Source of the DNA: an uncultured Nitrospiraceae bacterium
GTDB lineage: Bacteria; Nitrospirota; Thermodesulfovibrionia; Thermodesulfovibrionales; UBA9159
Direction of reading: 5' to 3'
DNA: 64,000 nt
Assembly: GCA_964475485.1 (NCBI GenBank)
Contig: CAYYWY010000007.1
Location: forward strand, 15,849-79,848
Below, piece by piece: positions 3 through 27,229 of this stretch. The position numbers and the translations under genes are program-made. The notes beneath the pieces were generated by a model. The model worked only from the letters and a program-made list of their open reading frames with translations. It searched no databases and was not told the origin of the DNA. Each line of letters starts with the position of its first letter. The first letter of the stretch is position 1.

Positions 3-479
3 ATGCCCGACCTTAATGGTATAGAGGCCACGCGGCAGATCGTCGCCGAATGCCCGGATGTAAAAGTCATAGCGGTCTCCATGCACTCTGACAAACGTTT
101 CGTGTCTGAGATGCTGAAGGCGGGCGCATCCGCCTATCTTTCGAAGGATTGCGCCTTCGACGAACTCGAAAACGCCATACGTACCGTGGTTACAGAGAAG
201 GTGTATCTCAGCCCGGATATTTCCGGTGTTGTTGTCGAAAATTATGTGCGCCGGTCGCCGAAGCCCGAATCTTCCGCTTTCTCCCTCCTGTCCGACAGGG
301 AAAGAGAGGTTTTGCAGCTTCTGGCGGAAGGAAAAACCGCAAAGGAGATCGCCGACCAGCTGCACGTAAGCATAAAGACAGTAGAGACGCACCGAACGAA
401 TATCATGGCGAAACTGAATATCCACAGGATCGCCGAGCTGACCAAATACGCCATCAGGGAAGGTCTGACGCCCCTATAA
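3..479 (+). CDS. LuxR/NarL-family response regulator, 5' end cut by the window edge (receiver tail plus LuxR HTH)
   Basis: The ORF is open to the window start. Receiver tail 'VIAVSMHSD..LKAGASAYLSKD'. LuxR HTH 'LSDREREVLQLLAEGKTAKEIADQLHVSIKTVETHRTNIMAKL'. Confidence 0.85.
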   Translation: MPDLNGIEATRQIVAECPDVKVIAVSMHSDKRFVSEMLKAGASAYLSKDCAFDELENAIRTVVTEKVYLSPDISGVVVENYVRRSPKPESSAFSLLSDREREVLQLLAEGKTAKEIADQLHVSIKTVETHRTNIMAKLNIHRIAELTKYAIREGLTPL

Positions 480-805: not shown

Positions 806-1858
806 ATGTCAGGGGATAATTTGACACCAAGAGAGAGGGTGCTTAGATTTCTGAAGGGAGAAGATGTCGTCCGCCCGCCGATTTTCAGCGGGATGGGCAA
901 TGTGATAAAGCCCGTGCTTGACAAGTACGGGATAGTTTTCTCGAAGGTCCACAGGGATGCCGAATTGATGGCGAAGGCAGCGGGAGGAATGTACAGGGAG
1001 TTCGGTTACGAATGTGCGGTCGTGCCTTTCGACCTTGGGGTGGAGGCAGAGGCGCTTGGCGCGAAAATGAACTTCTATGACGATGTGGAAGGGCTCCTTT
1101 ATCCGACGATCAAGGAAAAATCGGTGAAGGAAGTCGATGACATCCGCATCCCCGAAGACCTGGAGCATGCAGGAAGGATACCGGTTGTCACAGGCGCGAT
1201 AAGAGCCCTTCGCAGAGAGCTCGGCGACGAGGTGGCCATCGGCACCTATGTCCTCGGGCCGTTCACGCTCGCTGGACAGGTGAAGGAGCTCGACGAACTC
1301 TTCGAGGAATCCTTCCTCGATCCCGACAAGACCAACAAGCTCCTCGAAAGGCTCTCGGATTTCATCGTGAGGGTATTCCGGATTTATGAAAAAGCAGGAG
1401 CGGATTATTTCACCCTCAGGGAAATGGGCGGTACATCGGACGTCATGAGTCCCAAAAGCTTTAGAAGCCTCATAAAGCCACACCTGGTAAGGATCATTGA
1501 GGAGATGCCGCGACCGAACATACTTCATATCTGCGGCGATACCAATTCCATAGTGAAAGACATGGCAGAGTGCGGGGCCGATGCCATAAGCGTGGATCAG
1601 AAGAACTGCATGGCCGAGACCAGGGAAAAACTCGGATCCGAAATCATTATTCTCGGCAACTTCGACCCCATAAAGGTTCTCCACAAGGGCGAGGCAGGCA
1701 ACGTGGGGCCTGCGGTACTTGAATCCCTCAGGGGCGGGGCGAGTGCAGTATGGCCGGGCTGCGATCTCTGGCCCGAGGTACCGAGGGAAAACATGGAGGC
1801 GCTGATGACAACCCTTAAGGCTGCTAAAAAGATGACCGCGCAGAAGGTCTTACGATGA
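806..1858 (+). CDS. URO-D family corrinoid methyltransferase (MtaA/MtbA-like), paralogue 1
   Basis: 350 aa with SD 'aaaggag' upstream of the ATG. Family pattern 'TPRERVLRFLKGEDVVRPP', 'VPFDLGVEAEALGA'. Zn-ligand-type motif 'LHICGDT' ... 'VWPGCDLWP'. Confidence 0.85.
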   Translation: MSGDNLTPRERVLRFLKGEDVVRPPIFSGMGNVIKPVLDKYGIVFSKVHRDAELMAKAAGGMYREFGYECAVVPFDLGVEAEALGAKMNFYDDVEGLLYPTIKEKSVKEVDDIRIPEDLEHAGRIPVVTGAIRALRRELGDEVAIGTYVLGPFTLAGQVKELDELFEESFLDPDKTNKLLERLSDFIVRVFRIYEKAGADYFTLREMGGTSDVMSPKSFRSLIKPHLVRIIEEMPRPNILHICGDTNSIVKDMAECGADAISVDQKNCMAETREKLGSEIIILGNFDPIKVLHKGEAGNVGPAVLESLRGGASAVWPGCDLWPEVPRENMEALMTTLKAAKKMTAQKVLR

Positions 1859-2472
1859 GGATTTTTCAGGTCGCAGGGTGGCTCGGCTCTGGGAAGACGA
1901 CGCTGATCATCGCCCTGAGCAGGGCTCTTGCTGAGAGGAATTGCAGGGTTGCAATACTGGTGAACGAGATAGGCGCAATCCCTGTGGACGGAAAAGTGAT
2001 TCAGGAATACGGTCTCACCGTCAAGGATATAGGAGGAGGATGCATCTGCTGCCAGGTGGCAGGCAACCTGATGAAGACGTTGCGACTCCTGTCACAGGGG
2101 GCCAAACCTGAGATAGTTATAATAGAGCCTACCGGCATAGCAGTTCCCAGCTCGATCAAGCAGACGATCCTTTCAGGAGCACAGCTTCCGGAAATATCGA
2201 TAGGTCCCACAATTGTCCTCTTCGACACCACAAGGGAGGAAAAACTCCTGAATTACGAATCGCTGAAGAGGCTGGTTGAGACGCAGTTGAGGGACGCCGA
2301 CATCATAGCCCTCAGCAAGGTGGATATGGTTTCTGAGGAGGTGATCTCCCGGGCCCGAGCAGCAGTACGCCGTATCAATCCCGCTGCCACGGTAATACTT
2401 CTTTCAACAACGAGGGGTGACGGGCTTGAAGTCCTCGTTCGGGCCACGCAGGAGATCCCGGCGAAGGTATGA
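1855..2472 (+). CDS. G3E-family P-loop GTPase (CobW/HypB/UreG-like), GTPase domain only
   Basis: Walker A 'GWLGSGKTT' and metal motif 'GGGCICCQ'. Start overlaps the previous stop (ATGA at 1855). Only 205 aa, so it lacks the C-terminal domain seen in the paralogue at 33002. Confidence 0.8.
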   Translation: MRIFQVAGWLGSGKTTLIIALSRALAERNCRVAILVNEIGAIPVDGKVIQEYGLTVKDIGGGCICCQVAGNLMKTLRLLSQGAKPEIVIIEPTGIAVPSSIKQTILSGAQLPEISIGPTIVLFDTTREEKLLNYESLKRLVETQLRDADIIALSKVDMVSEEVISRARAAVRRINPAATVILLSTTRGDGLEVLVRATQEIPAKV

Positions 2473-2924
2473 GCAAGCGCCTCAGACTGATAACCCCAAG
2501 CCCGCTGCATGAGGATATCAAAGCCTACTCGGTGAGTTTCGAACTGTCGAGGGACAAGGAAGTGGATAGTTGGGAACTGCGGGAATTTGCGGCCGAGCTG
2601 ATGAGGTCCGTCTCAGGTGCATGCATAACCAGGGGAGCAAAGGTGATAGGGCACATCAAGGCATATATCGAACATGGTTCTGGATTCCTCCATGCAAATA
2701 CCGTTGGTAAATCCGGCGATGTGACGGTCGACGGCAGGGACGGAGACCCGGTGGGGAGGTTCACCCTTGTGGTGAACTCCATTGTTTATGCGCTTACTGA
2801 GACCTTAGTAAGAGACGCGACTGTAATGGCAATTGAGGAGACGTCTTCGGCGTTCGGATTAAAGACGGCAATGATAAGTGAGGCGGCTACGGCCGATTTC
2901 ATAGAGAAAGGAGAAAAAGAATGA
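2469..2924 (+). CDS. Hypothetical 151-aa protein, possibly a detached CobW C-terminal-like domain
   Basis: ATGA start/stop overlaps on both sides (2469 and 2921) argue for a real, translationally coupled CDS. '[26 protein letters not shown]' loosely resembles the CobW_C pattern; this is inference only. Confidence 0.55.
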
Positions 2925-3751
2925 GAGAGTCTGTGCATCAGATGCCGCTCGAGATAAGCATGCAGGATTACAGAATAGAGAAGGAGCCCTTTTATCTTCC
3001 AATACAGGACGAGGTGAAGCTTTTCGAAATAGCTTATGAAAGCAAGCTTCCTCTTATGCTGAAAGGCCCCACCGGATGCGGGAAAACCAGATTCCTTTCA
3101 TATATGGCTTACAAGCTGGATCTCCCGCTCATCACTGTAGCCTGTCACGAAGACCTTACGGCGAGCGACCTGATAGGCCGTTATCTTCTTGACGGCTCCA
3201 CAACCCGCTGGCAGGATGGTCCAGTGACCCTTGCTGTCAGGTACGGAGGGATTTGTTATCTCGACGAGATAGTTGAGGCTAGGAAGGACACAACGGTTGT
3301 CATCCATCCCCTCACCGATGACAGGCGTGTCCTCCCTATTGAAAAGCGGGGTCAGATTATCGAGGCGACTGACAGTTTTATGCTCGCTATCTCCTATAAC
3401 CCCGGTTATCAGACTGTCCTGAAGGATCTAAAGCAGAGCACCAAGCAGCGGTTTGTTTCTATTGGTTTCGATTACCCTCCGGCACAACTTGAAGAGGAAA
3501 TAGTGATTCACGAAAGCAGCGTTGGCCGGAGCGAAGCGGCGACCCTGAGGAAGATTGCCGAGAAGTTCCGCGCAATGAAGGGCAGGGGTCTCGATGAAGG
3601 GGTGAGCACGAGACTCCTGATCTATGCAGGGACGCTCATCCAGAAGGGCGTCGATCCGCGTCGTGCATGCACGGTTGCGCTTATACGGCCGATAACTGAT
3701 GACCCTGAAATCCAGAAGACGCTGGAAGAGATCGTGTCGGCTGTGGTTTAA
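2921..3751 (+). CDS. MoxR-class AAA+ ATPase, CbbQ/NirQ/NorQ/GvpN family
   Basis: Family-typical strings along the whole length: '[14 protein letters not shown]' (Walker A), '[26 protein letters not shown]' (Walker B region), '[20 protein letters not shown]', '[15 protein letters not shown]'. Confidence 0.9.
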
Positions 3752-3770
3752 GGAAGGGAAAGAAGATAGG

Positions 3771-6464
3771 ATGCCGGGAAATGTAGTTCACTCTGAAATG
3801 GAAAGGACACTAATCGGGAAGCTCGGGAATGCCGAACTCGTGGAGGAGGCGCTCGGCAAGGTTGGCACCATACTGGATGAAGAAGGCATGCGGTCCTATC
3901 TTTTGCTCATCGATTCCTTTACTTCGCTGGATCCGTCATTCTCGGGTTTCCTGCTCAGTTCCGGCCACAGGATATTGTCAGCCCTCAGATCTCCCAGTGT
4001 CCGGGGGAAAGCACTTGAGTCCCTTCTTGGAATGGGCAGATCAAAATGGAGTGTCGTGGAGCACGCGTACAGGACTCTTCCCCATGTCTCTGAAATGCTG
4101 CCGGAGGTCATTGAAGAATGGCTGAGATGCGGAAGCTCGCTCGCCGATATAGATCAGGATGTGGCGATACAGTACTTCGAATCAAGCCCGGCAGTGTTTG
4201 AAGAGCTGGGTTCTGAGAAGCTTCGGCACTGGGCCTCCCTCGGGCTTGAGATAGTCGGTATGTCGTGGAAGGCAGCGAAGGAATACTTCAGATCGAGTCC
4301 CGAGGTCCTGAAGAGGATAGACAGCTGTGACCTTGAGCGCTGGGCTCGCATCGGAATGTATCTGATCGAGAAAAGTCCTCGTATCAAAGTGGAATATAGT
4401 GTGCACAGCATGCTCGCGCAGGGAATTCAGGCAGGCAAGGCAAAGATGATGAACCTCGCTGTTCAGTATTTCAAGTCGGCCCCTCAGATACTGGGGAGGC
4501 TTTCGATACAGGACATCGAAAACTGGGTCGAAAAGGGCCTTGAAGTTACCGACGCAAAGAAAGAAAAAGGAGAGGCATACTTCTCTCTACAGACCGAGAA
4601 GAGCAGGAAGGAGATGGAGACCCTCGTCAAGGGCCTTGAGCTAAAGAATGTCCTTATCGTGCTCAACTCTTACGCTGCTGCACTTTTCGGGAAAAAGGTA
4701 AGGATACGGTCGTCTTCGATCTTTTATAAGAACCTTCCCGGGTTGAGCAGGTTCTTTTCCGTCACCGACGGAACGAGGGTGTTTCTGCCGTCGCGGATCG
4801 AGACGTTTGAAGACGAGGAACTCAATTTTAAGACATATAAATGGGCGCTTACGCATGAAATCGGTCACATGCTCTTCGGGACATTTATGGTGAGTCCCGC
4901 AGACCTTCTGAGACTTGCAGAGTTTCAGGACCCTCTTCCGGCTTTCAAAATCTTCGAATTCCTCGAAGATGAGAGGGTCGATTATCTTATGGGACTTGAA
5001 TATCCCGGACTTGAAAAGGACAGACGGGTGATCATGGATGCCTATATTTCAAAACTGCCGCAGAAGGGGGAGGTCATAAGGTCGGTGTTCGAATCCCTCA
5101 GCTTCAGGGTGGCCAGGAATGCGGATGAGCCTGTTGTTAGGGACTGCAGGTTGATGCATCTGCTGAAGGAAGCCCTTCCGAAAGTGATGACTCCTGACTG
5201 TACAGCCCGTGAAGTACTTGACCTGACTGTCCGGATGTACGAATCCCTGAACGGAGACTCGTCCTGTGAGGTATGCGGAAAACGGGAGGCCTGGGACAGA
5301 GTCTTTTACAGAGGAGTGCTCGATTTCAGGCTTGTCGGGGAGACGCGCAAAGGTGTGTCGAAACTCGTTCTGAGCATGGTCGAACGGTTCAGCGAAAAGA
5401 ATATCGATGTGAAGCCCGAGCAGATCGAGGAAGCGCTCGACAGGATAGACGATGCAGAGGGTCCGGAATCGGAGGTCCTGCTATGGCAGATAACGGATCA
5501 GGAGAACCTTGACGAGCTCTTCGAAAAAGTGAAGACCGCCGTGGAGGAACTCGATGAGGAGAGGCGCTTCAGGAGGACTGTCTATTACGATGAGTGGGAT
5601 ATGAAGCTCGAGGACTACAAGAAGGACTGGTGTAGGGTGAGAGAGACGCAGATGCCCTCCACATCCATGCTTTTCTACGAGCAGACAATCAGGAAGTATT
5701 ACGGCATGGTGAGCCTCCTGAGGAGGCACTTCGGTTTGCTGCGCCCCGACCGGTTCAAGCGTTATTTCCGGGAGGAGCGCGGTGACGATCTCGACCTTGA
5801 CGCAGTCATCGAATCGGTCGTCGACCGTCACGCCGGTATGACCCCGTCCGACAGGGTCTACTTACGTCGGGACAAGAAACTGCGGGATGTCTCGGTGGCA
5901 TTTCTCATTGATATGAGCTATTCAACGGGTGAAGTGCTTCCCTCCGGGAAGAGAATTATCGATGTGGAGCGGGAGGGACTCGTCCTGATGGCTGAGGCGC
6001 TCGAAAGCATCGGCGACCGCTGGGCCGTGTTCGGATTTTCGACTGAACGGAGGGACAAGGCCGACTTCTTTGTGGTGCGGGACTTTGACGAACCCTTCAC
6101 AGATGCAGTGAAGATGCGTTTCGAGGGTATAAGACCGATCGCTCTTACCAGGCTGGGAGCTGCCATACGACATGCAAACAGCTTTCTTGAAAAGCAGGAT
6201 TCGCTTATACGGCTCCTGATCCTCCTCTCGGACGGAAGGCCTTATGACATTGATTACGGGGACGTCGACTACTCTGTTGAAGACACCCGTGTAGCCCTTT
6301 GGGAGGGCAGGAACAAAGGGATAAAGTCTTTCTGCATCACGGTGGACAAAAAGAGCAGGGACTACCTGCCCTATATGTATGGGGAGGCGAACTACACGAT
6401 CATCGACAACATCGAGGCGCTGCCTATAAGTCTCCCTTTGATATACAAGAAACTTACGATGTAA
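3771..6464 (+). CDS. Large VWA-domain protein, CbbO/NorD-like partner of the AAA+ ATPase, with an internal HExxH motif
   Basis: I prefer the ATG at 3771, preceded by 'aaggaagggaaagaag', over the ORF-track start at 3699, which overlaps the previous gene. C-terminal VWA domain with MIDAS 'DMSYS' (5910-5924) and 'LLSDGRP'. 'HEIGH' at 4854-4868. Three ~40-aa N-terminal repeats. Confidence 0.8.
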   Translation: MPGNVVHSEMERTLIGKLGNAELVEEALGKVGTILDEEGMRSYLLLIDSFTSLDPSFSGFLLSSGHRILSALRSPSVRGKALESLLGMGRSKWSVVEHAYRTLPHVSEMLPEVIEEWLRCGSSLADIDQDVAIQYFESSPAVFEELGSEKLRHWASLGLEIVGMSWKAAKEYFRSSPEVLKRIDSCDLERWARIGMYLIEKSPRIKVEYSVHSMLAQGIQAGKAKMMNLAVQYFKSAPQILGRLSIQDIENWVEKGLEVTDAKKEKGEAYFSLQTEKSRKEMETLVKGLELKNVLIVLNSYAAALFGKKVRIRSSSIFYKNLPGLSRFFSVTDGTRVFLPSRIETFEDEELNFKTYKWALTHEIGHMLFGTFMVSPADLLRLAEFQDPLPAFKIFEFLEDERVDYLMGLEYPGLEKDRRVIMDAYISKLPQKGEVIRSVFESLSFRVARNADEPVVRDCRLMHLLKEALPKVMTPDCTAREVLDLTVRMYESLNGDSSCEVCGKREAWDRVFYRGVLDFRLVGETRKGVSKLVLSMVERFSEKNIDVKPEQIEEALDRIDDAEGPESEVLLWQITDQENLDELFEKVKTAVEELDEERRFRRTVYYDEWDMKLEDYKKDWCRVRETQMPSTSMLFYEQTIRKYYGMVSLLRRHFGLLRPDRFKRYFREERGDDLDLDAVIESVVDRHAGMTPSDRVYLRRDKKLRDVSVAFLIDMSYSTGEVLPSGKRIIDVEREGLVLMAEALESIGDRWAVFGFSTERRDKADFFVVRDFDEPFTDAVKMRFEGIRPIALTRLGAAIRHANSFLEKQDSLIRLLILLSDGRPYDIDYGDVDYSVEDTRVALWEGRNKGIKSFCITVDKKSRDYLPYMYGEANYTIIDNIEALPISLPLIYKKLTM

Positions 6465-6479
6465 GGAAAGGAGTGCAGG

Positions 6480-6719
6480 ATGGAGACGTGTTACAAGTGT
6501 GGAAGAAGGGCGGATTTTATTTGCCCCGATTGCGGGAGCAAGATATGCCAGGCTCACATGGAATTGCGTTACACCGGACCCGACCGTGGCTTTAAGTCCC
6601 GGTATATGTGTCCGGTCTGCTGGAAGGTCAAGCGTAGGGTTCTCAACGAACAGATGATCAGGGCGAAGGACTTCAAGCCGAAACTCTACGTCTTTACGTC
6701 CAGGAAATTCGGCATATAG
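6480..6719 (+). CDS. Small zinc-ribbon protein (79 aa)
   Basis: Cys pairs 'CYKC', 'CPDC', 'CPVC'. Lies 16 nt after the VWA gene on the same strand. Confidence 0.55.
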   Translation: METCYKCGRRADFICPDCGSKICQAHMELRYTGPDRGFKSRYMCPVCWKVKRRVLNEQMIRAKDFKPKLYVFTSRKFGI

Positions 6720-6748
6720 TGCCGTGAGGACTGTGTAAGAAAGGCAAT

Positions 6749-7411
6749 TTGAAAGAGTCTGCCCTGGCAAAGAAGTTGAGTGAACTCGAGCAGTTCGCCC
6801 TCGAAAAAGGGGCGTATCGTGCAAAGGCCTTCCCGGCCAGACTGATCGTTATTGACGAACGGGTGAGGCTCAAATGTCAGATACCCCTCTGCCCTCACTT
6901 CGGCTGCACCCTCACCTGTCCGCCTAATGTCCCGACGGCGGAGGAATTCAGCAAGGCCTTGAAACGTTACAGGAAGGCCATTCTTATCCAGACCAGGAGC
7001 CCTCTGAGCGGGGAGATAGATACCTATGACAAGGAAGAAGTCATGAAGTATTTTGCAGCGCCAGACACAGCGTCCAGATCGAAAGGAGGTGAAAAGGCCG
7101 AGAAACTAAAGGATCTCGACAGCATGAAGATTGCGGCGATCAGATTGCATAAACTCGTAAACGATGTGGAAGGCAAGGCAATGACCCTCGGATTTCCTTA
7201 TGCACTCGGGCTTATCGGAGGCGAATGCATGCTATGCACCGAATGCGTGGGAGTTGATTCCGGACAAGCATGCCGTCGTCCTTATCAGGCAAGACCTTCG
7301 ATGGAAGGTGTAGGGATCGATGTAATCAGGACGAGCATCGGGGCCGGGCTTCCCTTCGATATGCCGCCAAAGAAAGAGATAATCTGGTCAGGACTGATCC
7401 TGATCGATTAG
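6749..7411 (+). CDS. DUF2284-like predicted metal-binding protein
   Basis: TTG start. Motifs 'CQIPLCPHFGCTLTCPP' and 'GGECMLCTEC', as in the Cys-rich family commonly found next to corrinoid methyltransferases. Confidence 0.65.
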   Translation: MKESALAKKLSELEQFALEKGAYRAKAFPARLIVIDERVRLKCQIPLCPHFGCTLTCPPNVPTAEEFSKALKRYRKAILIQTRSPLSGEIDTYDKEEVMKYFAAPDTASRSKGGEKAEKLKDLDSMKIAAIRLHKLVNDVEGKAMTLGFPYALGLIGGECMLCTECVGVDSGQACRRPYQARPSMEGVGIDVIRTSIGAGLPFDMPPKKEIIWSGLILID

Positions 7412-7488
7412 GTGAAGGTCATCGGTTCCTTTGGGGAACCGCACGGCGAATGGAATGAAGTTAAGAAGTATGAGATAGGAGGTAATCA

Positions 7489-8568
7489 ATGGCACAGGTT
7501 CTCACGAAAACTGAACAAATGACGAGTCTTGAGCGGGTCGGCACGACGTTTCAGCACAAGGAGCCGGATCGGGTACCCGCTGCACCTCTTGTATGTGGCG
7601 CTTCACACAGATTTTCGGGAATTACCTATGGAGAGTGGTCGCAGGGGACGAACGTGGACGCGATGATAAAGGGTCACCTGGATGCCCTGGACATGATCGG
7701 TCACGACGGAGTGGTGATGCTTATCGATCTCTCCGTCGAGGCCCATGCCTTCGGCTGCGAAATCATCTTTCCAGAGTTCGACACAGCCCATCCCAATTAC
7801 GACGATCCCTTTATCAAGGGGCCCGAGGATTACAAGAAAATCAAGAAGGTCAACCCGAGGAAGACCATGCGGATGAAGACCGTTATAGATCTGGCCTCGG
7901 GGCTTTCAAAGGAGATAGGCAAAACCCATGCTATCGTGGGATTTGTCTATGGATCCATAGGTGTGTTGAGTATGATGCGGGGGCCTGAAGCTTTCTTCAT
8001 GGACCTCATGGAGCATCCTGATGAGGTGATGGAGGCAATTCAGGTGGTGGACGACGTCCTTATCGAATACGCCCTTGCCCAGGTCGAAGCGGGCTGCCAT
8101 TCGGTTTGCTACGACAACCTATATGCGTCTCAGAGCATTCTGAGCAAGGAACTGTGGGAGAAGTTCGAGGGGATGTCTGTGAAGAAAGTATGTGACGCGG
8201 TCAGGAACGCAGGCGCTCTTGTGTCATTCCACAACTGTGGGAACGGCATATATTTCGACATGACAGAGAAATGGGGGAATCCGGTGGCGATCTCACACGC
8301 CTACGTAGCCGACGACGTTGACAGCTGGGAAGAACACAAGGAGAAATGGGGCAAGAAGATATCCACTATCGGTTGGGTGCCTCCGGGACCTGTGGCGATG
8401 CTCGGGACACCTGAAGAGATTGAAGAGGAGTGCAAGGCTGAGATAGAGATCTTCGGAAAGGACGGGGGCTTTGTGCTCGCCACGGGCTGCGAGTTCGGTC
8501 CGAATGCCCCCCTCCGGAACGCCAAGAGGATCGTGGAAGCAGCAAAGAAATACGGTGTCTACAAATAA
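7489..8568 (+). CDS. URO-D family corrinoid methyltransferase (MtaA/MtbA-like), paralogue 2
   Basis: 359 aa with SD 'taggagg'. 'LERVGTTFQHKEPDRVP', 'DLSVEAHAFGCEI'. Zn-type motif 'FHNCGNG' ... 'LATGCEFGP'. Confidence 0.85.
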   Translation: MAQVLTKTEQMTSLERVGTTFQHKEPDRVPAAPLVCGASHRFSGITYGEWSQGTNVDAMIKGHLDALDMIGHDGVVMLIDLSVEAHAFGCEIIFPEFDTAHPNYDDPFIKGPEDYKKIKKVNPRKTMRMKTVIDLASGLSKEIGKTHAIVGFVYGSIGVLSMMRGPEAFFMDLMEHPDEVMEAIQVVDDVLIEYALAQVEAGCHSVCYDNLYASQSILSKELWEKFEGMSVKKVCDAVRNAGALVSFHNCGNGIYFDMTEKWGNPVAISHAYVADDVDSWEEHKEKWGKKISTIGWVPPGPVAMLGTPEEIEEECKAEIEIFGKDGGFVLATGCEFGPNAPLRNAKRIVEAAKKYGVYK

Positions 8569-8617
8569 GGGGAAAGGGCAGACGCATCAACTCTAAAACA
8601 AAAGGAAGGAGAACGAA

Positions 8618-9289
8618 ATGGCAACGAAAGAAAAAGAGCAGGAGATAATCAAGAGACTGCAGGATGCAGTCATCAACTACAAGGTGACGGAAGCAAAGAA
8701 GGCAGCGGAGGAAGCGGTACAGCTCGGTCTTGACGCATACAAGATGACAATGGAAGGCCTTGCAGGCGGTATGGAGGTAGTCAGCCAGAAGTTCGACTGC
8801 CACGAGTATTTCGTGCCTGAGACGCTTCTATGCGCAAAAGCGCTTTACGCCGCCCTTGATGTTTTGAAACCTCACATCAAGGTCACGGGAAATGGAGCGA
8901 GGGGGCAGGTCGTGCTTGGGGTCATGCAGGGAGATGTCCATGACCTCGGGAAAAACCTCATTAAGGCGATATTCGAGGCAGCAGGATGGACGGTCCATGA
9001 CCTTGGCAGGGACGTCCCGCTGCAGAAATTCGTCGAAGAGCAGCTCAGAACCGATTCCGACATCGTGATGCTTTCCGCAATGATGACGACCTCGATGGTC
9101 GGTATCAAGAAACTGATCCCGATGATAAAGGAGAAGAACCCGAAGGTAAAGATCATGATTGGGGGGGCTCCCATCACCGAGAAGACTGTTGAAGAGTATG
9201 GAGCGGATACCACGGCCGACAACGCGCCCAACGCCCTTCGCGAGGCGATGAAGATGCTCGAGACGCTGAAGAGAGGAAAGGCGGCATAA
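8618..9289 (+). CDS. Corrinoid (B12-binding) protein, MtaC/MtbC-like
   Basis: N-terminal helical cap followed by a B12-binding Rossmann domain. Has the DxHxxG motif 'GDVHDLGKN', plus 'LSAMMTTSM' and 'IMIGGAP'. Confidence 0.9.
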   Translation: MATKEKEQEIIKRLQDAVINYKVTEAKKAAEEAVQLGLDAYKMTMEGLAGGMEVVSQKFDCHEYFVPETLLCAKALYAALDVLKPHIKVTGNGARGQVVLGVMQGDVHDLGKNLIKAIFEAAGWTVHDLGRDVPLQKFVEEQLRTDSDIVMLSAMMTTSMVGIKKLIPMIKEKNPKVKIMIGGAPITEKTVEEYGADTTADNAPNALREAMKMLETLKRGKAA

Positions 9290-9459
9290 GGTTTCTCCCG
9301 CCTGTGGGATGCTGATGCGGCAACTCCGAAGGTGCCGCATGAATATGGCCCTGCTCACGCACTCTTGCAGGGCTGTATTCGTCATCCAGTCTGCATCGAA
9401 GGGTCTTATTGAGCGGACGCAGAATGAGGAGAGCCCCGAAAAGGAGGATTTAAAACGAT

Positions 9460-11412
9460 ATGGAGCACACGATTATTTTTCAGCCTTCCGGCAGGCGAGG
9501 CAAGGTGCCTGAAGGCACCACGATCCTCGATGCCGCCCGAAGGCTGGGGGTAGGCATCGAAGCCGTTTGCGGTGAGCAGCTTGTCTGCGGGAAATGCCGC
9601 GTCAAGGTGATGGAAGGGTCGTTTCCGAAAGAGGGCATTACCTCGCACATAGATCACCTGAGCGACCTAGACGAGAAAGAGATCAGGGTCTTAAAGCGTA
9701 AGGATTCGGAAGAACACATACGCCTAGCCTGTTCCAGCCGGATAAAAGGGGATGTGCTTGTGTTCGTGCCCGAGGCAAGCCGTACAGGCAAGCAGGTAGT
9801 GAGCAAGGCAGCCGGCAAGATCAATGTAAGGGTGAAACCGGCGGTAAAGAAGTACTATGTTGAACTCCCGCAGCCTTTGTTGGACGACCCGGAAGGTGAT
9901 TTCGAGCGCCTTGAGCGCGTGCTTGCCGCGAAGCACGGCCTCAAGAAACTCTCGATAGACTACAGGGCTCTGCAGGAACTGCCCGATGTGCTCAGAAAAG
10001 GGGACTGGAAGGTGACCGTGACGGTTTGGCAGAACACCGAGGTTATCAGGGTGGAGCCAGGCGAGGTCGAGACGAACATAGGCCTTGCCGTTGATGTCGG
10101 GACGACTACCGTGGCAGGATATCTCACCGATCTCAACACCGGCGAGGTTCTGGTTACCGAGTCGATGATGAACCCACAGGTGCGTTACGGCGAGGATGTT
10201 ATGTCCCGTATCACCTATTGCATGATGAACGAGGGATCGGGCTTAAGAGAACTGCGGCAAAGCATAGTAGAGGGTTTGAATACGATTGCAAAACAGGCGG
10301 CTCACAAAGCCGGGCATTCGCCGGAGGACATCAGCGAGATGACCCTTGTCGGAAATACCGCAATGCACCACATCCTGCTCGGGATTAACCCCGAATACAT
10401 GGGAGTGGCGCCCTTCACTCCTGCCCTGCACCAGTCGATGGACATCAAGGCCGAGCGTTTCGGGATCGGGATCCTCCCGGCAGGCAATATCCATGTGCTT
10501 CCGATAGAGGCAGGCTTTGTCGGCGCCGATAACGTGGGTTGCCTCATAGCGGACGAACCCCATAAACGGAAGGAGATAACACTTTTGATTGATATAGGTA
10601 CCAATGGAGAGCTTGTCCTCGGAAACAGGGAGAAGCTTATCTCCTGTTCCTGTGCTACGGGCCCTGCCCTTGAGGGGGCACAAATAGAATTCGGAATGCG
10701 AGCCGCGCCTGGCGCCATAGAAAGGGTAAGGATAGACCCGGTCACTCTGGAGCCTATCTATAAAGTAATAGGGAACGACCGGTGGAGCGACGGCGAGATG
10801 AACATGCAGGCAAAGGGAATCTGCGGTTCCGCCATCATCGATGTCATAGCTGAGATGTTCAAGGCCGGGATACTGAAGAAGAACGGACAGATCAACATGG
10901 AGCCGAAGTCGCCGCGGTTGAGGAAGGGCAATAAGGGAATGAACGAGTACGTACTTGCATGGAGACACGAGACGTCAATCGATCAGGACATCGTTGTGAA
11001 TCAGAAGGATGTACGCGCCATACAGCTTGCCAAGGGGGCCCTTTATTCGGGCTGCCTCATCATGATGCGCAAGCTCGGCATTAAGGAATTCGACAGGTTG
11101 GCTGTGGCGGGCGCCTTCGGAAGCCACATAGACAAGGTCGAGGCCATGGTGATCGGGATGTTCCCGGACTGCGATCTGAAGAAGGTGAAGTACATCGGCA
11201 ATGCGGCCGGTGACGGGGCCCGCATCGCGCTTCTCAATGTGGACAAGAGGAAAGAGGCCAATGTGATTGCGAGGAAGGTGGAGTATGTGGAACTCGCCCT
11301 TGAAGAGGACTTCAATGATCGCTTCGGAGAAGCGATGCAGTTTCCCCATATGTTTGATGAGTTTCCGCACCTTGAAGGTATCTTGCCTTCTGAGACTGTG
11401 AGTGCGGATTAG
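9460..11412 (+). CDS. Corrinoid activation protein (RACE/RamA-like): 2Fe-2S ferredoxin domain fused to an ASKHA ATPase domain
   Basis: N-terminus 'IIFQPSGRRG..CGEQLVCGKCRVKV'. ASKHA motifs 'LAVDVGTTTVAGYL' and 'IDIGTNGELVLG'. 650 aa. Confidence 0.9.
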   Translation: MEHTIIFQPSGRRGKVPEGTTILDAARRLGVGIEAVCGEQLVCGKCRVKVMEGSFPKEGITSHIDHLSDLDEKEIRVLKRKDSEEHIRLACSSRIKGDVLVFVPEASRTGKQVVSKAAGKINVRVKPAVKKYYVELPQPLLDDPEGDFERLERVLAAKHGLKKLSIDYRALQELPDVLRKGDWKVTVTVWQNTEVIRVEPGEVETNIGLAVDVGTTTVAGYLTDLNTGEVLVTESMMNPQVRYGEDVMSRITYCMMNEGSGLRELRQSIVEGLNTIAKQAAHKAGHSPEDISEMTLVGNTAMHHILLGINPEYMGVAPFTPALHQSMDIKAERFGIGILPAGNIHVLPIEAGFVGADNVGCLIADEPHKRKEITLLIDIGTNGELVLGNREKLISCSCATGPALEGAQIEFGMRAAPGAIERVRIDPVTLEPIYKVIGNDRWSDGEMNMQAKGICGSAIIDVIAEMFKAGILKKNGQINMEPKSPRLRKGNKGMNEYVLAWRHETSIDQDIVVNQKDVRAIQLAKGALYSGCLIMMRKLGIKEFDRLAVAGAFGSHIDKVEAMVIGMFPDCDLKKVKYIGNAAGDGARIALLNVDKRKEANVIARKVEYVELALEEDFNDRFGEAMQFPHMFDEFPHLEGILPSETVSAD

Positions 11413-11459
11413 ATTGGATTGCACAGCCGCCGAGCGCGGTCGTGGGAAAGGAGAGGAAC

Positions 11460-11654
11460 ATGAAAGTGAAGTATGTCGGAGAAACCAAAGAAGTCAAAAC
11501 TATAAGCGGCAAGGATGCGAAGTTGGAAAAAGGCATGGAGCTTGACTGCATGGAGAAGGAGTATCACTCAGCCACGACAGTGAGAGCGATCCTGGCATCG
11601 GGCGAGCATGTGAAGGTCAGGAGGAACGAACTGCAGAAGGTCGAAGTGTGCTGA
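11460..11654 (+). CDS. Hypothetical small protein (64 aa)
   Basis: ATG at 11460 preceded by 'gggaaaggagagg'. No recognisable motif. Confidence 0.4.
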   Translation: MKVKYVGETKEVKTISGKDAKLEKGMELDCMEKEYHSATTVRAILASGEHVKVRRNELQKVEVC

Positions 11655-11769
11655 CGGTTCGTCCCGGGATTTTCGTCTTGGGAATTGAACGGCAACATCC
11701 GGGCTCAACGGCCTCTGCGTCGCCTCTTTTGGATGGTGTTGACGGGAAGTGCACGGGGAGCGAGGGACT

Positions 11770-12015
11770 ATGAAACTGTCGATAGAATATTGCGGAACCT
11801 GCAATTACAGACCGATTGCCGCCAGTTTGGCCATGGCTATAGAGAAGGCAATCAACATAAAAGCGGTTCTTGTACATTCCCGGGATATGGGTGCTCTTGA
11901 AGTAAGGGCAGACGGTGAGCTTATCTTTTCAAAAAAGGAGTCCGGGATTTTCCCCGATCATTCGGAGATCGTCGAGATGTTGAGAGCCCGGGAAATGATC
12001 AAGGCAAAGAAATGA
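11770..12015 (+). CDS. Rdx (SelW/SelT-like) thioredoxin-fold protein with a CxxC motif
   Basis: 'MKLSIEYCGTCNYRPIA' is the typical Rdx N-terminus. I prefer the ATG at 11770, preceded by 'ggggagcgaggga', over the ORF-track start at 11749. Confidence 0.6.
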   Translation: MKLSIEYCGTCNYRPIAASLAMAIEKAINIKAVLVHSRDMGALEVRADGELIFSKKESGIFPDHSEIVEMLRAREMIKAKK

Positions 12016-12016
12016 C

Positions 12017-12045
12017 TTGACAGGTAAATGATTTCATTATATATG
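12017..12045 (+). promoter_or_regulatory. Possible sigma-70-type promoter for the riboswitch-btuFCD transcript
   Basis: TTGACA at 12017-12022, a 17-nt spacer, then TATATG in an AT-rich stretch directly upstream of the riboswitch. Confidence 0.35.
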
Positions 12046-12049
12046 ATAA

Positions 12050-12240
12050 TAGTGACAAGGTGCCGGGAGGCTTAATAGGGAATCCCGTGAAGGTGAAAGC
12101 CGATTCGGGAGCGGTCCCGCCGCTGTGAACGGGGACAAAAGTCGACTTAGCCACTTTTCCGACTATCGGGATGGGAAGGCCGGCAAGTAGGATGATCCGT
12201 GAGCCAGAAGACCTGCCTGTAAACGACAGTGAGTGGCGTG
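12050..12240 (+). promoter_or_regulatory. Cobalamin riboswitch 1
   Basis: Core 'AATAGGGAATCCCGTGAAGGTGAAAGCC..GGTCCCGCCGCTGTGAACGGGGAC', 'GCCACT..GGGAAGGCCGG', and B12 box 'GAGCCAGAAGACCTGCC' (12201-12217). Lies upstream of a B12 ABC importer. Confidence 0.85.
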
Positions 12241-15004: not shown

Positions 15005-15711
15005 CGACCACTCTTTATTTGATCAGGCACGGAGAGACAGAATGGAGCGGTGCAAGACGCTATTGCGGGAGCATCGATGTGCCCCTCAATGAGAAGGGGA
15101 TGGACCAGATGAGGAGAGCCGCCCTTTTCGTGAGAGAGCATCTGAAAACTTCGACTTTGTCAAAATACTCAAGCTATTTAAGGGACCTCAATAGCAAGGA
15201 AAGGGCGAGCTCGGAAAGCGCTGGTCTTCCGGAGTTCCCGGAGCCGGTCTTGTCCGCGGTCTATTCTTCAGATCTGCGGAGAGCCTTTAAGAGTGCGGAG
15301 ATCGTGGCCGGGTGCCACGGTTTACAGGCCGTTGCGGTACCGGATCTGAGGGAACGGAGCTTCGGTGTCTGGGAGGGCATGACGTTTACTGAAATAAGAG
15401 AGAGGTATCCTTCGGAGTTCGAGTCCTGGGCCGGCAACCCTCTGAAGTATCATCCCGTGGGCGGAGAGAGCACCCATGAGGTGCGGGACAGGGTCGTTCC
15501 GGCGATTGAGGGGACACTGCAGGGGCACTCAGGCAAGAACATCGCAGTGGTTGCCCACGGAGGAGTGAACAGGATAATCCTCTGCCACTTCCTAGGGATG
15601 CCGTTGAAGCACATCTTCAGGATCGAGCAGGACCACGGCGCTGTGAACATCATCGAATTTTGGGAGAGATATCCTGTCGTGAAACTCATAAACGGAGTAC
15701 CGTATGATTAG
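15001..15711 (+). CDS. cobC: Histidine-phosphatase family protein, probably alpha-ribazole phosphatase CobC, with a low-complexity insertion
   Basis: 'LYLIRHGETEWS' (RHG motif), 'SSDLRRA', 'VVAHGG'. Last gene of the btuFCD operon. Confidence 0.7.
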   Translation: MTTTLYLIRHGETEWSGARRYCGSIDVPLNEKGMDQMRRAALFVREHLKTSTLSKYSSYLRDLNSKERASSESAGLPEFPEPVLSAVYSSDLRRAFKSAEIVAGCHGLQAVAVPDLRERSFGVWEGMTFTEIRERYPSEFESWAGNPLKYHPVGGESTHEVRDRVVPAIEGTLQGHSGKNIAVVAHGGVNRIILCHFLGMPLKHIFRIEQDHGAVNIIEFWERYPVVKLINGVPYD

Positions 15712-15744
15712 CCGTTAATACACCTGCTTTCAGCAGGAAAAGAG

Positions 15745-15950
15745 GGGTATACAAGGGGAATCCCGTAGATCCGGGAACTGCCCCGCAACTGTGAAGGGAA
15801 CGAAAGCCATATAAGCTCGTGGCTCATGGTTAACAGCTCATAGTCTGTGAACTGAGACCTGCGAGCTTCGAGCCAAAGAGGCCACTCGGCTTTAAAAGCC
15901 GGGGAAGGCGGGCAAGTAGGTAGATGCCCTGAGTCAGGAAACCCTGGATA
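15745..15950 (+). promoter_or_regulatory. Cobalamin riboswitch 2, with an enlarged variable region
   Basis: 'AAGGGGAATCCCGTAGATCCGGGAACTGCCCCGCAACTGTGAAGGGAACG', 'GCCACTCGG..CCGGGGAAGGCGG', and B12-box-like 'GAGTCAGGAAACCCTGGA' (15931-15948). Lies upstream of the btuB-like receptor. Confidence 0.8.
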
Positions 15951-16098
15951 CCTCGGAAACGTTATCCTTCGAGGGAAAAGGAGGTTTGCTATGAGACGGA
16001 ATACATGATAGCCGGAAATCAGTCCATACCTTAGCGGATCCGCCTAGGCGGACAGTCAAGGGTCAATAATTGAAAATGATCAAAAAGGAGAAAGGGTT

Positions 16099-20205: not shown

Positions 20206-20796
20206 ATGTCAGAGAAGGAAAAGCCTTTGCCGAGACCTCCGAAAACCCCCTTCGGAAGAAGGCGCTTTGACCAGGGGGAAGGAAATGCTCCCCTTATGGC
20301 CGAGAGGATGGCAGTTGCGATGGCACAGGGGAAACTGGATGATTTTATGAAGGAAGAGATGCCTGACAACGACTATGCAAGGACTCTTGCTGCGATGATG
20401 ATGGGAATGACGGGAATGATGGTCCCCGGGGGCATGCCTTCAGGTGGCGAGAAAAGAGAAGAGGAGCATTCAGGGAAGGGAGAAGTGGTGAGGCCCTCCG
20501 AGGAAGTGCGTTCCGGGCAATCCTCTGAGGGGGTGATCAGTGCCGCACTGGCAGGGGACGTAAAGGGGTTGATGGAGATACTTGCCACTGAACACAAGAA
20601 GAGGATGCCGGAGCCGGGATCCGATCCTGCTGGAGAGAAAGAGATGCAGGAATCACCGGGACTCAGTGGCCTCGAAAGGAAGACCCTTGACCGGATCGTA
20701 GGAATCGCCTCTGAGAACAATGTGAGCGTCGACTGGATTGTGATGAGGGCATTGAAACTGTATATACAGGAGTATCAGAAAACCGGCCGGCTGTAG
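20206..20796 (+). CDS. Hypothetical protein with a Met/Gly-rich disordered region and a C-terminal ribbon-helix-helix-like segment
   Basis: 'AAMMMGMTGMMVPGGMP', and C-terminus 'LDRIVGIASENNVSVDWIVMRALKLYIQEY'. Confidence 0.5.
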   Translation: MSEKEKPLPRPPKTPFGRRRFDQGEGNAPLMAERMAVAMAQGKLDDFMKEEMPDNDYARTLAAMMMGMTGMMVPGGMPSGGEKREEEHSGKGEVVRPSEEVRSGQSSEGVISAALAGDVKGLMEILATEHKKRMPEPGSDPAGEKEMQESPGLSGLERKTLDRIVGIASENNVSVDWIVMRALKLYIQEYQKTGRL

Positions 20797-20810: not shown

Positions 20811-21164
20811 TCACGATGATTGGATCGATCCACTGCTTCTGCTTAACTTTCCGCTATCGATGAATGTGATGCTCACGTCTTTCGGAAGGGCGAACCCGGC
20901 CTCCACCTCCATAGCCTTCAAGATGCCCGACGGCACGGGACAGGTGACATGCTTCAGATGTTTCGAGGCTGAACGGTAGACAGGGTTGTCGAGGAACCGG
21001 ACGAATACCGTCATCATATCCAGATACTCAACGTCCCCGGCCATCTTGCTCACCATCTCACAATCAGACGCAAGCGAGATGCGTATCTTCTTTCCGGCGG
21101 TTTTCTCAGCTGCTATTGTAGTCGTGAAACCGCAGATACCCGACTTTACAACGACCTTGGTCAT
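20811..21164 (-). CDS. Small Cys-containing hypothetical protein (117 aa), last gene of the minus-strand row
   Basis: 'VVVKSGICGFTTTI', 'SDCEMV', 'HVTCPVPSGILKAMEVEAG'. I cannot assign a family with confidence. Confidence 0.5.
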   Translation of the reverse strand: MTKVVVKSGICGFTTTIAAEKTAGKKIRISLASDCEMVSKMAGDVEYLDMMTVFVRFLDNPVYRSASKHLKHVTCPVPSGILKAMEVEAGFALPKDVSITFIDSGKLSRSSGSIQSS

Positions 21165-21210
21165 TCTTATATCCCTTTTATTATATCATGGAATGTCCGG
21201 GCAAAATCCG

Positions 21211-22020: not shown

Positions 22021-22021
22021 C

Positions 22022-22789: not shown

Positions 22790-22830
22790 GCTCTTGCTCT
22801 CCCTGTCTGAAGTGAAGGAGAATCATCCGC

Positions 22831-23793: not shown

Positions 23794-23804
23794 CTCTTCT
23801 CCCT

Positions 23805-25778: not shown

Positions 25779-25875
25779 ATGATTCCTCCGAAAATAATTT
25801 TATGGATTCGTCTTTAAACCAAAGGTCATCATTAAAGGTTACGCGACAGGCAATGTGACTGAGCGCGAGCCCGGC

Positions 25876-27227: not shown

Positions 27228-27229
27228 TT

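Follow-up and report, generated by a model that had tools for sequence, protein, structure and literature searches.

The DNA analysed here, a stretch of 64,000 nucleotides (the window), carries a corrinoid-dependent methyltransferase locus, set A, that combines two URO-D-family methyltransferases (URO-D1 and URO-D2), a corrinoid carrier protein and a RACo-type activase. This composition raises the question of how methyl groups would enter and leave a system with no recognisable substrate-specific methyltransferase (MT1) or pterin enzyme. The analysis indicates that set A probably serves methyl transfer between sulfur (or selenium) compounds, a reaction in which neither a classical MT1 nor a folate enzyme is needed.

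Gene content and conservation of set A

Pfam placed all four genes where the original prediction had located them (Table 1). Each is an uninterrupted ORF, hence free of in-frame TAG as had been stated. Neither Pfam nor NCBIfam matched the MttB, MtaB, MtgB or pterin-binding families to any plus-strand gene of 806-11412, in agreement with the same source, or to the scanned ORFs of at least 150 aa elsewhere in the window. Since plus-strand genes fill this interval almost completely, there is no space for a split TAG-containing gene. The loci orthologous to set A have no MT1 on their upstream side either, where a PAS histidine kinase, HupE/UreJ and OsmC lie.

Eight further genes that had been overlooked accompany the four named ones: six (1855-7411) are embedded between the URO-D genes, and two small ORFs follow RACo. 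URO-D1, URO-D2, the corrinoid protein and RACo are members of a larger 13-gene operon, in which the membership of the Rdx gene is uncertain. Neighbouring genes overlap by 4 nt from URO-D1 to the AAA+ ATPase, including the URO-D1 stop and the GTPase start, and the following gaps measure 16-78 nt, indicating a single transcription unit.

Table 1 Features of the set A locus and folate-related genes of the same window
Feature	Position	Strand	Evidence
NarL/LuxR-type response regulator, C-terminal part	3-479	+	Pfam Response_reg + GerE; cut by window start
URO-D1, MtaA/MtbA-like methyltransferase	806-1858	+	Pfam URO-D 224 bits, E 2.5e-66
COG0523 (CobW-like) G3E GTPase domain	1855-2472	+	Pfam cobW, E 5e-34
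hyp151	2469-2924	+	C-terminal domain of COG0523 GTPase as detached ORF
CbbQ/NorQ-type MoxR AAA+ ATPase	2921-3751	+	Pfam AAA_5 + CbbQ_C
NorD/CbbO-like adaptor, 897 aa	3771-6464	+	N-terminal helical-repeat region, HExxH...EDER segment, C-terminal VWA/MIDAS domain
Cys-rich zinc-ribbon-like protein, 79 aa	6480-6719	+	Three CxxC
DUF2284 Cys-rich predicted metal-binding protein	6749-7411	+	Pfam DUF2284, E 4.9e-40
URO-D2, divergent MtaA-superfamily methyltransferase	7489-8568	+	Pfam URO-D 185 bits, E 2.6e-54
Corrinoid (cobamide) carrier protein, His-on type	8618-9289	+	Pfam B12-binding_2 + B12-binding
RACo/RamA-type ATP-dependent reductive activase of corrinoid proteins	9460-11412	+	Pfam Fer2, RACo_linker, Raco_middle, RACo_C_ter
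64-aa ORF after RACo	11460-11654	+	Conserved
Rdx/SelW-like CxxC thioredoxin-fold protein	11770-12015	+	Pfam Rdx 58 bits
MtrH	28301-29332		
MTHFR	31438-32328		

The operon is conserved across Nitrospirota and Nitrospinota, and at least 16 loci, which carry the labels Nitrospirota, Nitrospinota or Desulfobacterales, share the block in synteny. The complete gene order recurs in L001, L002, L004, L006-L009, L011, L016-L018 and L023, and part of it in five loci cut by contig ends (L003, L005, L010, L012 and L019), with 50-84% identity of the VWA protein across both groups. The response regulator, which keeps its place with 73-90% identity in nine of the loci L001-L012, is the likely regulator of the operon, and a multi-PAS HisKA_3 kinase precedes it in L001, L004 and L023. 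We propose that set A is one operon under the control of a PAS-kinase/NarL-type two-component system. Meanwhile, the 3′ side of the operon is occupied by riboswitch-controlled BtuFCD, CobC, BtuB, CobO and a tetrapyrrole methylase.

Two URO-D methyltransferases with a predicted zinc-thiolate site

Both enzymes displayed a predicted zinc site, His241-x-Cys243...Cys319 in URO-D1 and His248-x-Cys250...Cys334 in URO-D2. The ligands are invariant in 14 orthologues of URO-D1 and in 120 members of the URO-D2 family, and the motif is kept in all four URO-D paralogues of the window. This His-Cys-Cys site characterises the sulfur and selenium methyltransferases of the URO-D superfamily, whereas O-demethylases substitute the Cys ligands (Kountz & Balskus 2023, PMC10418091), a rule drawn by a preprint from few characterised enzymes. 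The bacterial O-demethylases (OdmABCD, VdmABC, MtvABC) do share with set A a four-component logic of URO-D-family MT1, corrinoid protein and activase. However, their MT1 has the Cys ligands replaced and works with a pterin-type MT2 partner, and set A has neither trait. Hence, the ligand motif argues against the O-demethylase analogy of the original prediction.

The two enzymes are 20% identical to each other and, as had been proposed, most plausibly divide the two half-reactions on one corrinoid protein between them. URO-D1 and URO-D2 are 32% and 25% identical to MtaA (4AY7), and their scores of 208 and 95 bits against NCBIfam MtaA_Meth (cutoff 400) and of 171 and 98 bits against MtbA (cutoff 600) show that neither is an equivalog of a characterised enzyme. 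URO-D1 reached 244 bits against PRK06252, at the family cutoff, and in a published tree its orthologue GBE01228 branches next to the MtbA clade. Meanwhile, URO-D2, whose gene adjoins that of the corrinoid protein, is 55% identical to WP_207708753 of Heliobacterium mobile, a member of an mlp cluster that neighbours nitrogenase-like and cysteine-synthesis genes. In H. mobile (L020), URO-D2-family genes lie beside nitrogenase-like genes, NifH-like, PALP, NIR_SIR, CobW and DUF1638, and in L022 beside four Oxidored_nitro genes, CBS/PALP and Cys_Met_Meta_PP. In both loci, URO-D2-family genes keep company with sulfur metabolism.

The carrier protein scored 183 bits against TIGR02370 and displays the DxHxxG motif as GDVHDLG.

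A putative metal-chaperone cassette embedded in the operon

What sets this locus apart most is the cassette formed by the six embedded genes, which encode a split COG0523 GTPase, a CbbQ/NorQ AAA+ ATPase, a NorD-like HExxH/VWA adaptor, a zinc-ribbon protein and a DUF2284 protein. The GTPase ORF has a GCICC metal motif, lacks the C-terminal domain, and has CobW_rel_Se as its best, sub-threshold NCBIfam match. The next ORF, hyp151, matched nothing in Pfam or NCBIfam. Its profile (A3) matches residues ~220-335 of 335-352-aa proteins with a Pfam cobW N-terminus, and its AF2 model (pLDDT 85.5) matches YjiA (4IXM/1NIJ, probability 0.97-0.98).

The ATPase and adaptor resemble NorQ/NorD and CbbQ/CbbO, machines of metal insertion or active-site remodelling. 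The ATPase scored 383 bits against CbbQ (5C3C) and 328 against NorQ (9QHD), and CobS gave a weak NCBIfam match (E 0.0017). The adaptor, whose start is likelier at 3771 than at the listed 3699, matches NorD (9QHD) at residues 565-895 with 179 bits and carries the DxSxS (MIDAS) motif; the NorD VWA domain was the only Foldseek match of its model (pLDDT 67.5, moderate), and the N-terminal part matched no fold in that search. It is some 250 aa longer than the solved NorD chains and has N-terminal helical repeats and an HExxH...EDER segment, in which H362, E363, H366 and E399-R402 do not vary among 15 homologues (50-76% identity). Unlike in the known machines, the pair is joined with a COG0523 GTPase, and no NOR or Rubisco client lies nearby.

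The zinc-ribbon-like protein, which had no Pfam match, is 57-67% identical to 74-aa genes in the same place in L016 and L018, and the ORF is also called in L023. The DUF2284 protein has no relative in the PDB and weakly matches the selenoprotein families MbdU and ArsM_DUF2284_UU in NCBIfam.

Precedents exist for parts of this cassette. NorQD puts metal into a client protein (PMC13036017), and COG0523 subfamily 13, CobW-like GTPases with CxCC, clusters with corrinoid-dependent methyltransferases (Haas et al. 2009, PMC2770081). The set A GTPase resembles that subfamily in motif and clustering, and differs from it in having its C-terminal domain as a separate ORF and in being joined to the AAA+/VWA pair. 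Locus L021 retains cobW, a hyp151-like gene, a URO-D2-like gene, CbbQ and a 752-aa VWA relative without the HExxH...EDER segment, and no corrinoid gene was found within 10 kb, suggesting that the cassette is linked to URO-D2. It is best read as a previously undescribed cassette for the maturation or repair of a metallocentre.

A proposed methyl relay between thiols or selenols

Two zinc-thiolate-type MtaA-like enzymes, a B12 carrier, its activase and a metal-insertion set together point to sulfur or selenium methyl transfer. On balance, we favour the view that set A is an mlp-like corrinoid methyl relay between sulfur or selenium nucleophiles, equipped with a metallocentre-maturation cassette; such a relay would explain why MT1 and the folate enzyme are missing. 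RACo would reduce the cobamide on the carrier to Co(I), using ATP and an electron. One Zn(His-Cys-Cys) enzyme, preferably URO-D2 since it is divergent and adjoins the carrier, would then transfer a methyl group from a methyl-thioether or methyl-selenide to Co(I), and the other, the MtbA-like URO-D1, would pass it from methyl-Co(III) to a thiol acceptor, which the original prediction had plausibly offered among its options. The cassette would load or restore a metal centre, for which the catalytic zinc of URO-D2 is the likeliest candidate; the corrinoid protein or cobamide loading may be its target instead. Set A and its immediate surroundings offer no substrate, transporter or downstream sulfur or selenium enzyme, and the sulfur/selenium assignment is therefore drawn from the ligand motif and the context of distant relatives.

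Relays without an MttB/MtaB-type MT1 or pterin enzyme have precedents in MtsA/MtsB and MtpA as well as in the mlp gene clusters. Of these, MtpA has been characterised as a methylthioether:cob(I)alamin enzyme of the URO-D family and requires a second methyltransferase. MtsA/MtsB and MtpA/MtpC likewise combine URO-D-family zinc enzymes acting directly on methyl-thioethers with a small corrinoid protein, but they are archaeal and use coenzyme M as acceptor, whereas set A is bacterial and its enzymes are distant from those of methanogens, as the MtaA identities and equivalog scores above indicate. The mlp clusters, found in anaerobes, share with set A several MtaA-like His-Cys-Cys UroD proteins, a single corrinoid protein with a single Ram/RACE activase, and the lack of an H4folate methyltransferase, and ClMlp2 transfers methyl from methylcobalamin to selenide (PMC10418091). 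However, type 1 MGCs have no conserved synteny, in contrast to the fixed gene order of set A. The URO-D1 and URO-D2 lineages fall outside Mlp1-3, the clades with demonstrated selenide activity, and the tree of that paper shows their orthologues solely as accessions without a label. Its supplementary files, species table included, gave no match to Nitrospirota or Nitrospinota names, and its main text does not mention CobW, COG0523, NorD or GTPase.

Alternative roles

Catabolic methylotrophy with a folate exit is an unlikely alternative, in which URO-D2 would demethylate an O-, N- or halogen-bound methyl, the MtrH-like enzyme of a second carrier/activase set (set B) or URO-D1 as a new H4folate methyltransferase would take it over, and MTHFR would oxidise it. 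It draws on the presence of MtrH, MTHFR and set B in the same window, the first two 17-20 kb from set A, on the URO-D-family MT1 of O-demethylases such as OdmB and VdmB, and on the 51% identity of URO-D1 and URO-D3, which might make sets A and B interchangeable. Kountz & Balskus also left room for an undiscovered H4folate methylase among Mlps (PMC10418091). Against this stand the retained His-Cys-Cys ligands and the recurrence of set A in Nitrospinota and other loci (L016, L018, L023) where the 10 kb around the query gene contain no MtrH. In BMS3Bbin06, moreover, the URO-D3-like gene is ~466 accession numbers from the URO-D1 orthologue. Linkage therefore gives no support to the sharing of MtrH that had been suggested; the original interpretation as a whole is partly supported. 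Furthermore, no URO-D-type H4folate methyltransferase has been characterised, and the acetogen MTII MtaA1, at 29.7 kDa, is of non-URO-D size as inferred from its mass.

Somewhat less probable again is a biosynthetic or salvage role, in which the relay would produce methionine or serve to recycle methylthio or methylseleno by-products. Homocysteine or another cellular thiol would then be methylated by one URO-D enzyme, in line with what has been proposed for the type 1 mlp clusters of the non-selenium kind; Kountz & Balskus suggest methionine salvage for clusters of this sort (PMC10418091). The URO-D2 relatives beside cysteine/methionine PLP enzymes, CBS, sulfite reductase and MarHDK-like nitrogenase homologues agree with this, as does DUF1638, genetically tied to split MetH function and found near set A in L016 and L018. 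A carrier orthologue is named methionine synthase, but by automatic annotation. In the Nitrospirota loci, however, set A has no neighbouring gene for methionine or cysteine biosynthesis, and two-component control suggests an environmental signal rather than housekeeping. This role is a sub-case of the favoured relay with a defined acceptor.

Least probable is that the G3E GTPase and AAA+/VWA pair load, exchange or re-metallate the corrinoid on the carrier, with the URO-D proteins as ordinary partners: G3E GTPases include the B12 chaperone MeaB (a faint Pfam match on the L018 orthologue), CobS/CobT is a MoxR-type AAA+/VWA pair, and the 3′ neighbours and the HupE/UreJ upstream in L001 fit, but there is no CobN-like subunit, the ATPase is far closer to CbbQ/NorQ than to CobS, and L021 has the cassette with a URO-D2-like gene but no corrinoid protein within 10 kb.

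Small ORFs after RACo

In L016 and L018, an Rdx gene lies beside a third URO-D gene and DUF1638, not after RACo. The 64-aa ORF resembles, by eye, the 61-77-aa genes that follow RACo in L016, L018 and L023.

Gene content and organization of set A

The two URO-D genes, the corrinoid protein (hereafter the carrier) and the activase named in the original prediction are all present, as judged by ORFs and Pfam domains, but six genes lying between them and two ORFs following RACo had been overlooked. The first four genes of the set are joined by 4-nt overlaps, and the later gaps range from 16 to 78 nt. The adaptor ORF as listed (921 aa, from 3699) is probably too long, its likely start being the ATG used in the table.

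Genes of methyltransferase set A and the regulator on its 5′ side (window positions)
Feature	Position	Strand	Remarks
NarL/LuxR response regulator	3-479	+	5′ of block
URO-D1	806-1858	+	uninterrupted ORF; Pfam URO-D E 2.5e-66
CobW-like G3E GTPase with GCICC motif	1855-2472	+	Pfam cobW
hyp151, 151-aa ORF	2469-2924	+	COG0523 C-terminal domain by profile and model
CbbQ/NorQ AAA+ ATPase	2921-3751	+	AAA_5 + CbbQ_C
Adaptor, 897 aa, NorD-like with VWA/MIDAS	3771-6464	+	NorD match over residues 565-895
79-aa Cys-rich ORF (Zn-ribbon)	6480-6719	+	
DUF2284 protein	6749-7411	+	
URO-D2	7489-8568	+	uninterrupted ORF; Pfam URO-D E 2.6e-54
Corrinoid carrier	8618-9289	+	B12-binding_2 + B12-binding; His-on motif GDVHDLG
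RACo activase	9460-11412	+	all four RACo domains
64-aa ORF	11460-11654	+	3′ of RACo
Rdx/SelW-like CxxC protein	11770-12015	+	3′ of RACo

No match to the MttB, MtaB, MtgB or pterin-binding families (Pfam/NCBIfam) was found among the + strand genes of 806-11412, nor among the larger ORFs scanned over the rest of the window, in agreement with the predicted lack of a recognisable MT1 or pterin methyltransferase. A TAG-split gene had also been thought absent, and indeed the coding density of the interval leaves no room for one, while the URO-D ORFs are uninterrupted. An MT1 just outside the window was a further case raised by the original prediction. The context 5′ of set A was read from orthologous loci in other genomes (L001, L004 and L023), none of which has an MT1 upstream; all three have a multi-PAS HisKA_3 kinase upstream of the module, and L001 has HupE/UreJ and OsmC genes further upstream. 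The window contains no tRNAs, and therefore no tRNA-Sec or tRNA-Pyl. A promoter/terminator scan gave counts not above those of shuffled sequence.

The carrier displays a cap domain and a Rossmann B12 domain with DxHxxG, features of the TIGR02370 type. Its score against that model (182.6 bits, cutoff 215.3) places it under the threshold of this pyl-associated subfamily.

Two URO-D enzymes with MtaA-type zinc sites

Set A was compared with characterised enzymes through NCBIfam cutoffs, an identity matrix and a published Newick tree, and MtaA 4AY7 was the sequence compared directly. URO-D1 scored 230.5 bits against TIGR01463 (MtaA/CmuA; cutoff 235.4) and 244.4 bits against PRK06252 (cutoff 244). 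URO-D2 was well below both cutoffs (127.6 and 131.1 bits, respectively). Both proteins also fell below the methanogen MtaA/MtbA equivalogs NF040654 (208.5 for URO-D1 and 95.4 for URO-D2, cutoff 400) and NF041608 (171 and 97.5, cutoff 600). URO-D1 shares 32% identity with MtaA 4AY7 and 51% with URO-D3 of set B, the second methyltransferase set of the window; URO-D2 shares 25% with MtaA 4AY7 and 20% with URO-D1.

The predicted zinc ligands of URO-D1 (H241/C243/C319) and URO-D2 (H248/C250/C334) align to LHICG and PGC of MtaA 4AY7. This His-x-Cys...Cys signature is kept in all four URO-D paralogues of the window and is invariant in 120 relatives of URO-D2 and 14 orthologues of URO-D1. We also considered whether a URO-D protein could serve a chelatase as its tetrapyrrole-binding subunit; this was rejected because a methyl-carrier protein, an activase and an MtaA-type zinc site are all present.

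Relationship to mlp gene clusters

The closest described systems are the mlp gene clusters (Kountz & Balskus 2023, PMC10418091). Those authors argue that His-Cys-Cys marks S/Se-methyltransferases and that O-demethylases substitute the cysteines; they showed methylcobalamin:selenide transfer for ClMlp2 and linked a "non-selenium" mlp subgroup to MarHDK-like and methionine/cysteine genes. Set A resembles their type 1 cluster in that no MtrH or pterin-binding domain occurs within 806-12015. It differs in that, in the inspected parts of the authors' unrooted tree, orthologues of URO-D1 and URO-D2 fall outside the clades labelled Mlp (Mlp2/Mlp3). The URO-D1 orthologues seen there, GBE01228 and HDO36566, are plain accessions with no Mlp label, and GBE01228, whose identity as a URO-D1 orthologue was confirmed, sits with Ferroglobus WP_012966229 beside the MtbA clade. 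In the same tree, the URO-D2 orthologues GBE01235 and HDO36248 form an accession-labelled clade that is sister (support 0.995) to heliobacterial accessions.

URO-D2 is 55% identical to WP_207708753, the first gene of the mlp cluster of Heliobacterium mobile, a species listed as a carrier of the type 1 cluster (PMC10418091). Around that gene are found nitrogenase-like genes, a NifH-like gene, PALP, sulfite reductase, CobW, DUF1638 and an NMT1-type ABC system. Another URO-D2 relative (locus L022) occurs with four nitrogenase-like genes, CBS and a Cys/Met PLP enzyme. Names of Nitrospirota or Nitrospinota had no match in the supplementary files of the mlp study, and its main text makes no mention of Nitrospirota, CobW, NorD or GTPase (PMC10418091). 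Among the S/Se corrinoid methyltransferase clusters of mlp type, set A is a variant set apart by two unlabelled UroD lineages, a fixed synteny and an embedded metallochaperone cassette.

A proposed methyl relay on a single carrier

The most likely mechanism for set A is a relay in which RACo and two His-Cys-Cys enzymes serve one carrier. RACo would reduce the carrier to Co(I), one URO-D enzyme would take a methyl group from a methyl-thioether or methyl-selenide onto it, and the other would hand the methyl group to a thiol. MtsA and MtpA are precedents, and MtpA also requires a second methyltransferase. An MtsA/MtpA-type relay with thiol/selenol-activating transferases would remove the apparent gap flagged earlier, that is, the missing MT1 or folate enzyme. 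When a corrinoid methyltransferase set has no obvious MT1 or folate enzyme, it is usually filed under "substrate unknown"; in set A, the lack of both enzymes would be explained by both transferases being of the thiol/selenol-activating type.

Alternatively, the methyl group could exit to folate through the MtrH of set B, which the original prediction had allowed to be shared. This is possible, as set B lies 17 kb from set A and also holds an MTHFR gene, but the linkage between the two sets is not conserved across loci. The zinc ligands argue against reading set A as an O-demethylase: both cysteines are kept in URO-D1 and URO-D2, unlike in the bacterial O-demethylase MT1 enzymes OdmB/VdmB, where one or both Cys are replaced by carboxylates or non-ligands (PMC10418091). 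The original prediction holds in part: one carrier most plausibly serves both URO-D enzymes and a thiol is a plausible acceptor, but the O-demethylase does not serve as its model.

A putative metallochaperone cassette associated with URO-D2

The ATPase of the cassette scored 383 bits against CbbQ (5C3C) and 328 against NorQ, while residues 565-895 of the adaptor aligned with 179 bits to NorD and carry a DxSxS MIDAS motif. The two genes thus have the features of a MoxR-VWA pair, namely an AAA_5 ATPase containing CbbQ_C and, encoded just after it, a partner whose C-terminal domain is of the VWA/MIDAS type. No gene for a cNOR or Rubisco client was found among the Pfam-scanned ORFs of the window or in the inspected loci.

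The AF2 model of the adaptor (mean pLDDT 67.5) matched PDB entries for its VWA part alone (NorD), the N-terminal region being modelled as helical repeats; for these 560 residues, no sequence or fold relative was found beyond designed helical repeats (AF2 model against PDB). The region displays invariant H362-E363-x-x-H366 and E399-D400-E401-R402 motifs. A metalloprotease was rejected, with no fold or family match in its support, and we regard the HExxH motif as a conserved candidate metal site.

The hyp151 ORF had no family match. Its profile covers residues ~220-335 of 335-352-aa proteins with an N-terminal Pfam cobW domain, and its confident model (pLDDT 85.5) matches E. coli YjiA, so the GTPase ORF and hyp151 represent one putative COG0523 chaperone split in two, and hyp151 is a detached C-terminal domain instead of a new family. 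Together they display the features predicted of a COG0523 metallochaperone, with a cobW domain, a GCxCC motif and a C-terminal domain supplied by the next ORF. In a 400-aa protein (P0428), a hyp151-like domain is fused to PAS and LuxR-type HTH domains, which suggests that such domains can act as ligand or metal sensors. No PDB relative was found for DUF2284.

Haas et al. (PMC2770081) noted that genes of one COG0523 subfamily cluster with those for corrinoid methyltransferases, in which MtaA and MtaB are zinc enzymes, and NorQD is a metal-insertion machine (PMC13036017). In the literature searched, no paper describes the partnership of a methyltransferase with a COG0523 GTPase and a chaperone of the NorQD/CbbQO type, and none treats MtaA, corrinoid and CbbQ together.

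We propose that the cassette (COG0523, AAA+, VWA, Zn-ribbon and DUF2284 proteins) most plausibly serves to assemble or repair a metal centre in URO-D2. In locus L021, a URO-D2-like gene (52% identical) occurs with cobW, a hyp151-like gene, CbbQ and a VWA protein and has no corrinoid protein within 10 kb, which ties the cassette to the URO-D2 lineage and not to the carrier. This argues against a role of the cassette in cobamide loading, as does an ATPase far more similar to CbbQ/NorQ than to CobS.

Tentatively, the split GTPase, a NorQ-like ring and a NorD-like adaptor bearing an HExxH metal site of its own might form an undescribed machine that inserts or repairs the metal of a corrinoid-dependent thiol/selenol methyltransferase, whose relay would give Nitrospirota and Nitrospinota a route to methyl-sulfur or methyl-selenium; we hold this combined reading to be possible, if rather doubtful. 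Here we infer the donor-side enzyme and the actual substrates, as well as the client and the metal of the chaperone.

A second CobW paralogue in L021 (9093-9680), which gene calling had broken into two fragments, has a TGA codon in frame within GG-U-LGC and is probably a CobW-related selenoprotein. It adjoins the URO-D2-like gene, CbbQ, the VWA protein and genes with ATP-grasp and PylD_N domains.

Distribution and ecological implications

Searching species-representative genomes with the 897-aa adaptor yielded 13 loci that encode close relatives; these loci carry the labels Nitrospirota, Thermodesulfovibrionales or Ca. Sulfobium. Wherever the contig permits, tblastn recovered the order regulator, URO-D1, CobW, hyp151, CbbQ, VWA, DUF2284, URO-D2, carrier, RACo. 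In the protein database the adaptor has more than 120 clusters (50-84% identity), including MAGs labelled Nitrospinota and Desulfobacterales with the same module on their contigs. In sediments and groundwater, the module is common among uncultured members of the Nitrospirota (Thermodesulfovibrionales, Ca. Sulfobium) and of the Nitrospinota.

To our knowledge, the turnover of methanethiol, dimethylsulfide and methyl-selenides by sediment and groundwater bacteria is poorly understood, and very few clients of MoxR-VWA pairs are known. If our proposal is true, Nitrospirota and Nitrospinota, which are widespread in sediments, would have a route for using or producing volatile methyl-sulfur or methyl-selenium compounds, and the cassette would be the first metal-insertion system of the MoxR-VWA type with a methyltransferase as its assigned client, widening a class with so few clients. 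Were the client shown, these small soluble proteins would provide a tractable system.

A third URO-D gene occurs near the module, with an Rdx protein and DUF1638, in loci from Nitrospinota and one other lineage (L016:4619-6650 and L018:19500-21387); this URO-D is 58% identical between the two loci. In Phaeobacter, genetic evidence connects DUF1638 with the function of a split methionine synthase.

Neighbouring genes

Two cobalamin riboswitches, at 12041-12234 (100 bits) ahead of BtuFCD-CobC and at 15703-15964 (50 bits) ahead of BtuB-TonB-CobO, indicate that B12 uptake/salvage lies directly downstream of set A and is separately controlled. Set B (21211-32328, minus strand) encodes MTHFR, URO-D4, a CMD-family protein, MtrH, URO-D3, a corrinoid protein, a Fer4 protein, RACo, and an NMT1/SsuA-type binding protein with an ABC transporter of the same type as in the H. 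mobile mlp cluster. Its gene content suggests a system of chloromethane (cmu)-like or mlp-like kind, equipped with a dedicated importer and a folate exit. Its corrinoid ORF (26538-27341) overlaps URO-D3 by 112 nt, so the true start is probably internal. ORFs 20206-20796, 20986-21672 and 35751-36461 (196-236 aa) had no Pfam match even at E = 10. Finally, the regions 32332-33357, 36657-37325 and 39925-44991 encode two OsmC-domain proteins that are extended at the N-terminus by long stretches, and a second NMT1-like binding protein; the latter is accompanied by two permeases and two ATPases and is flanked by sigma-54 activators.
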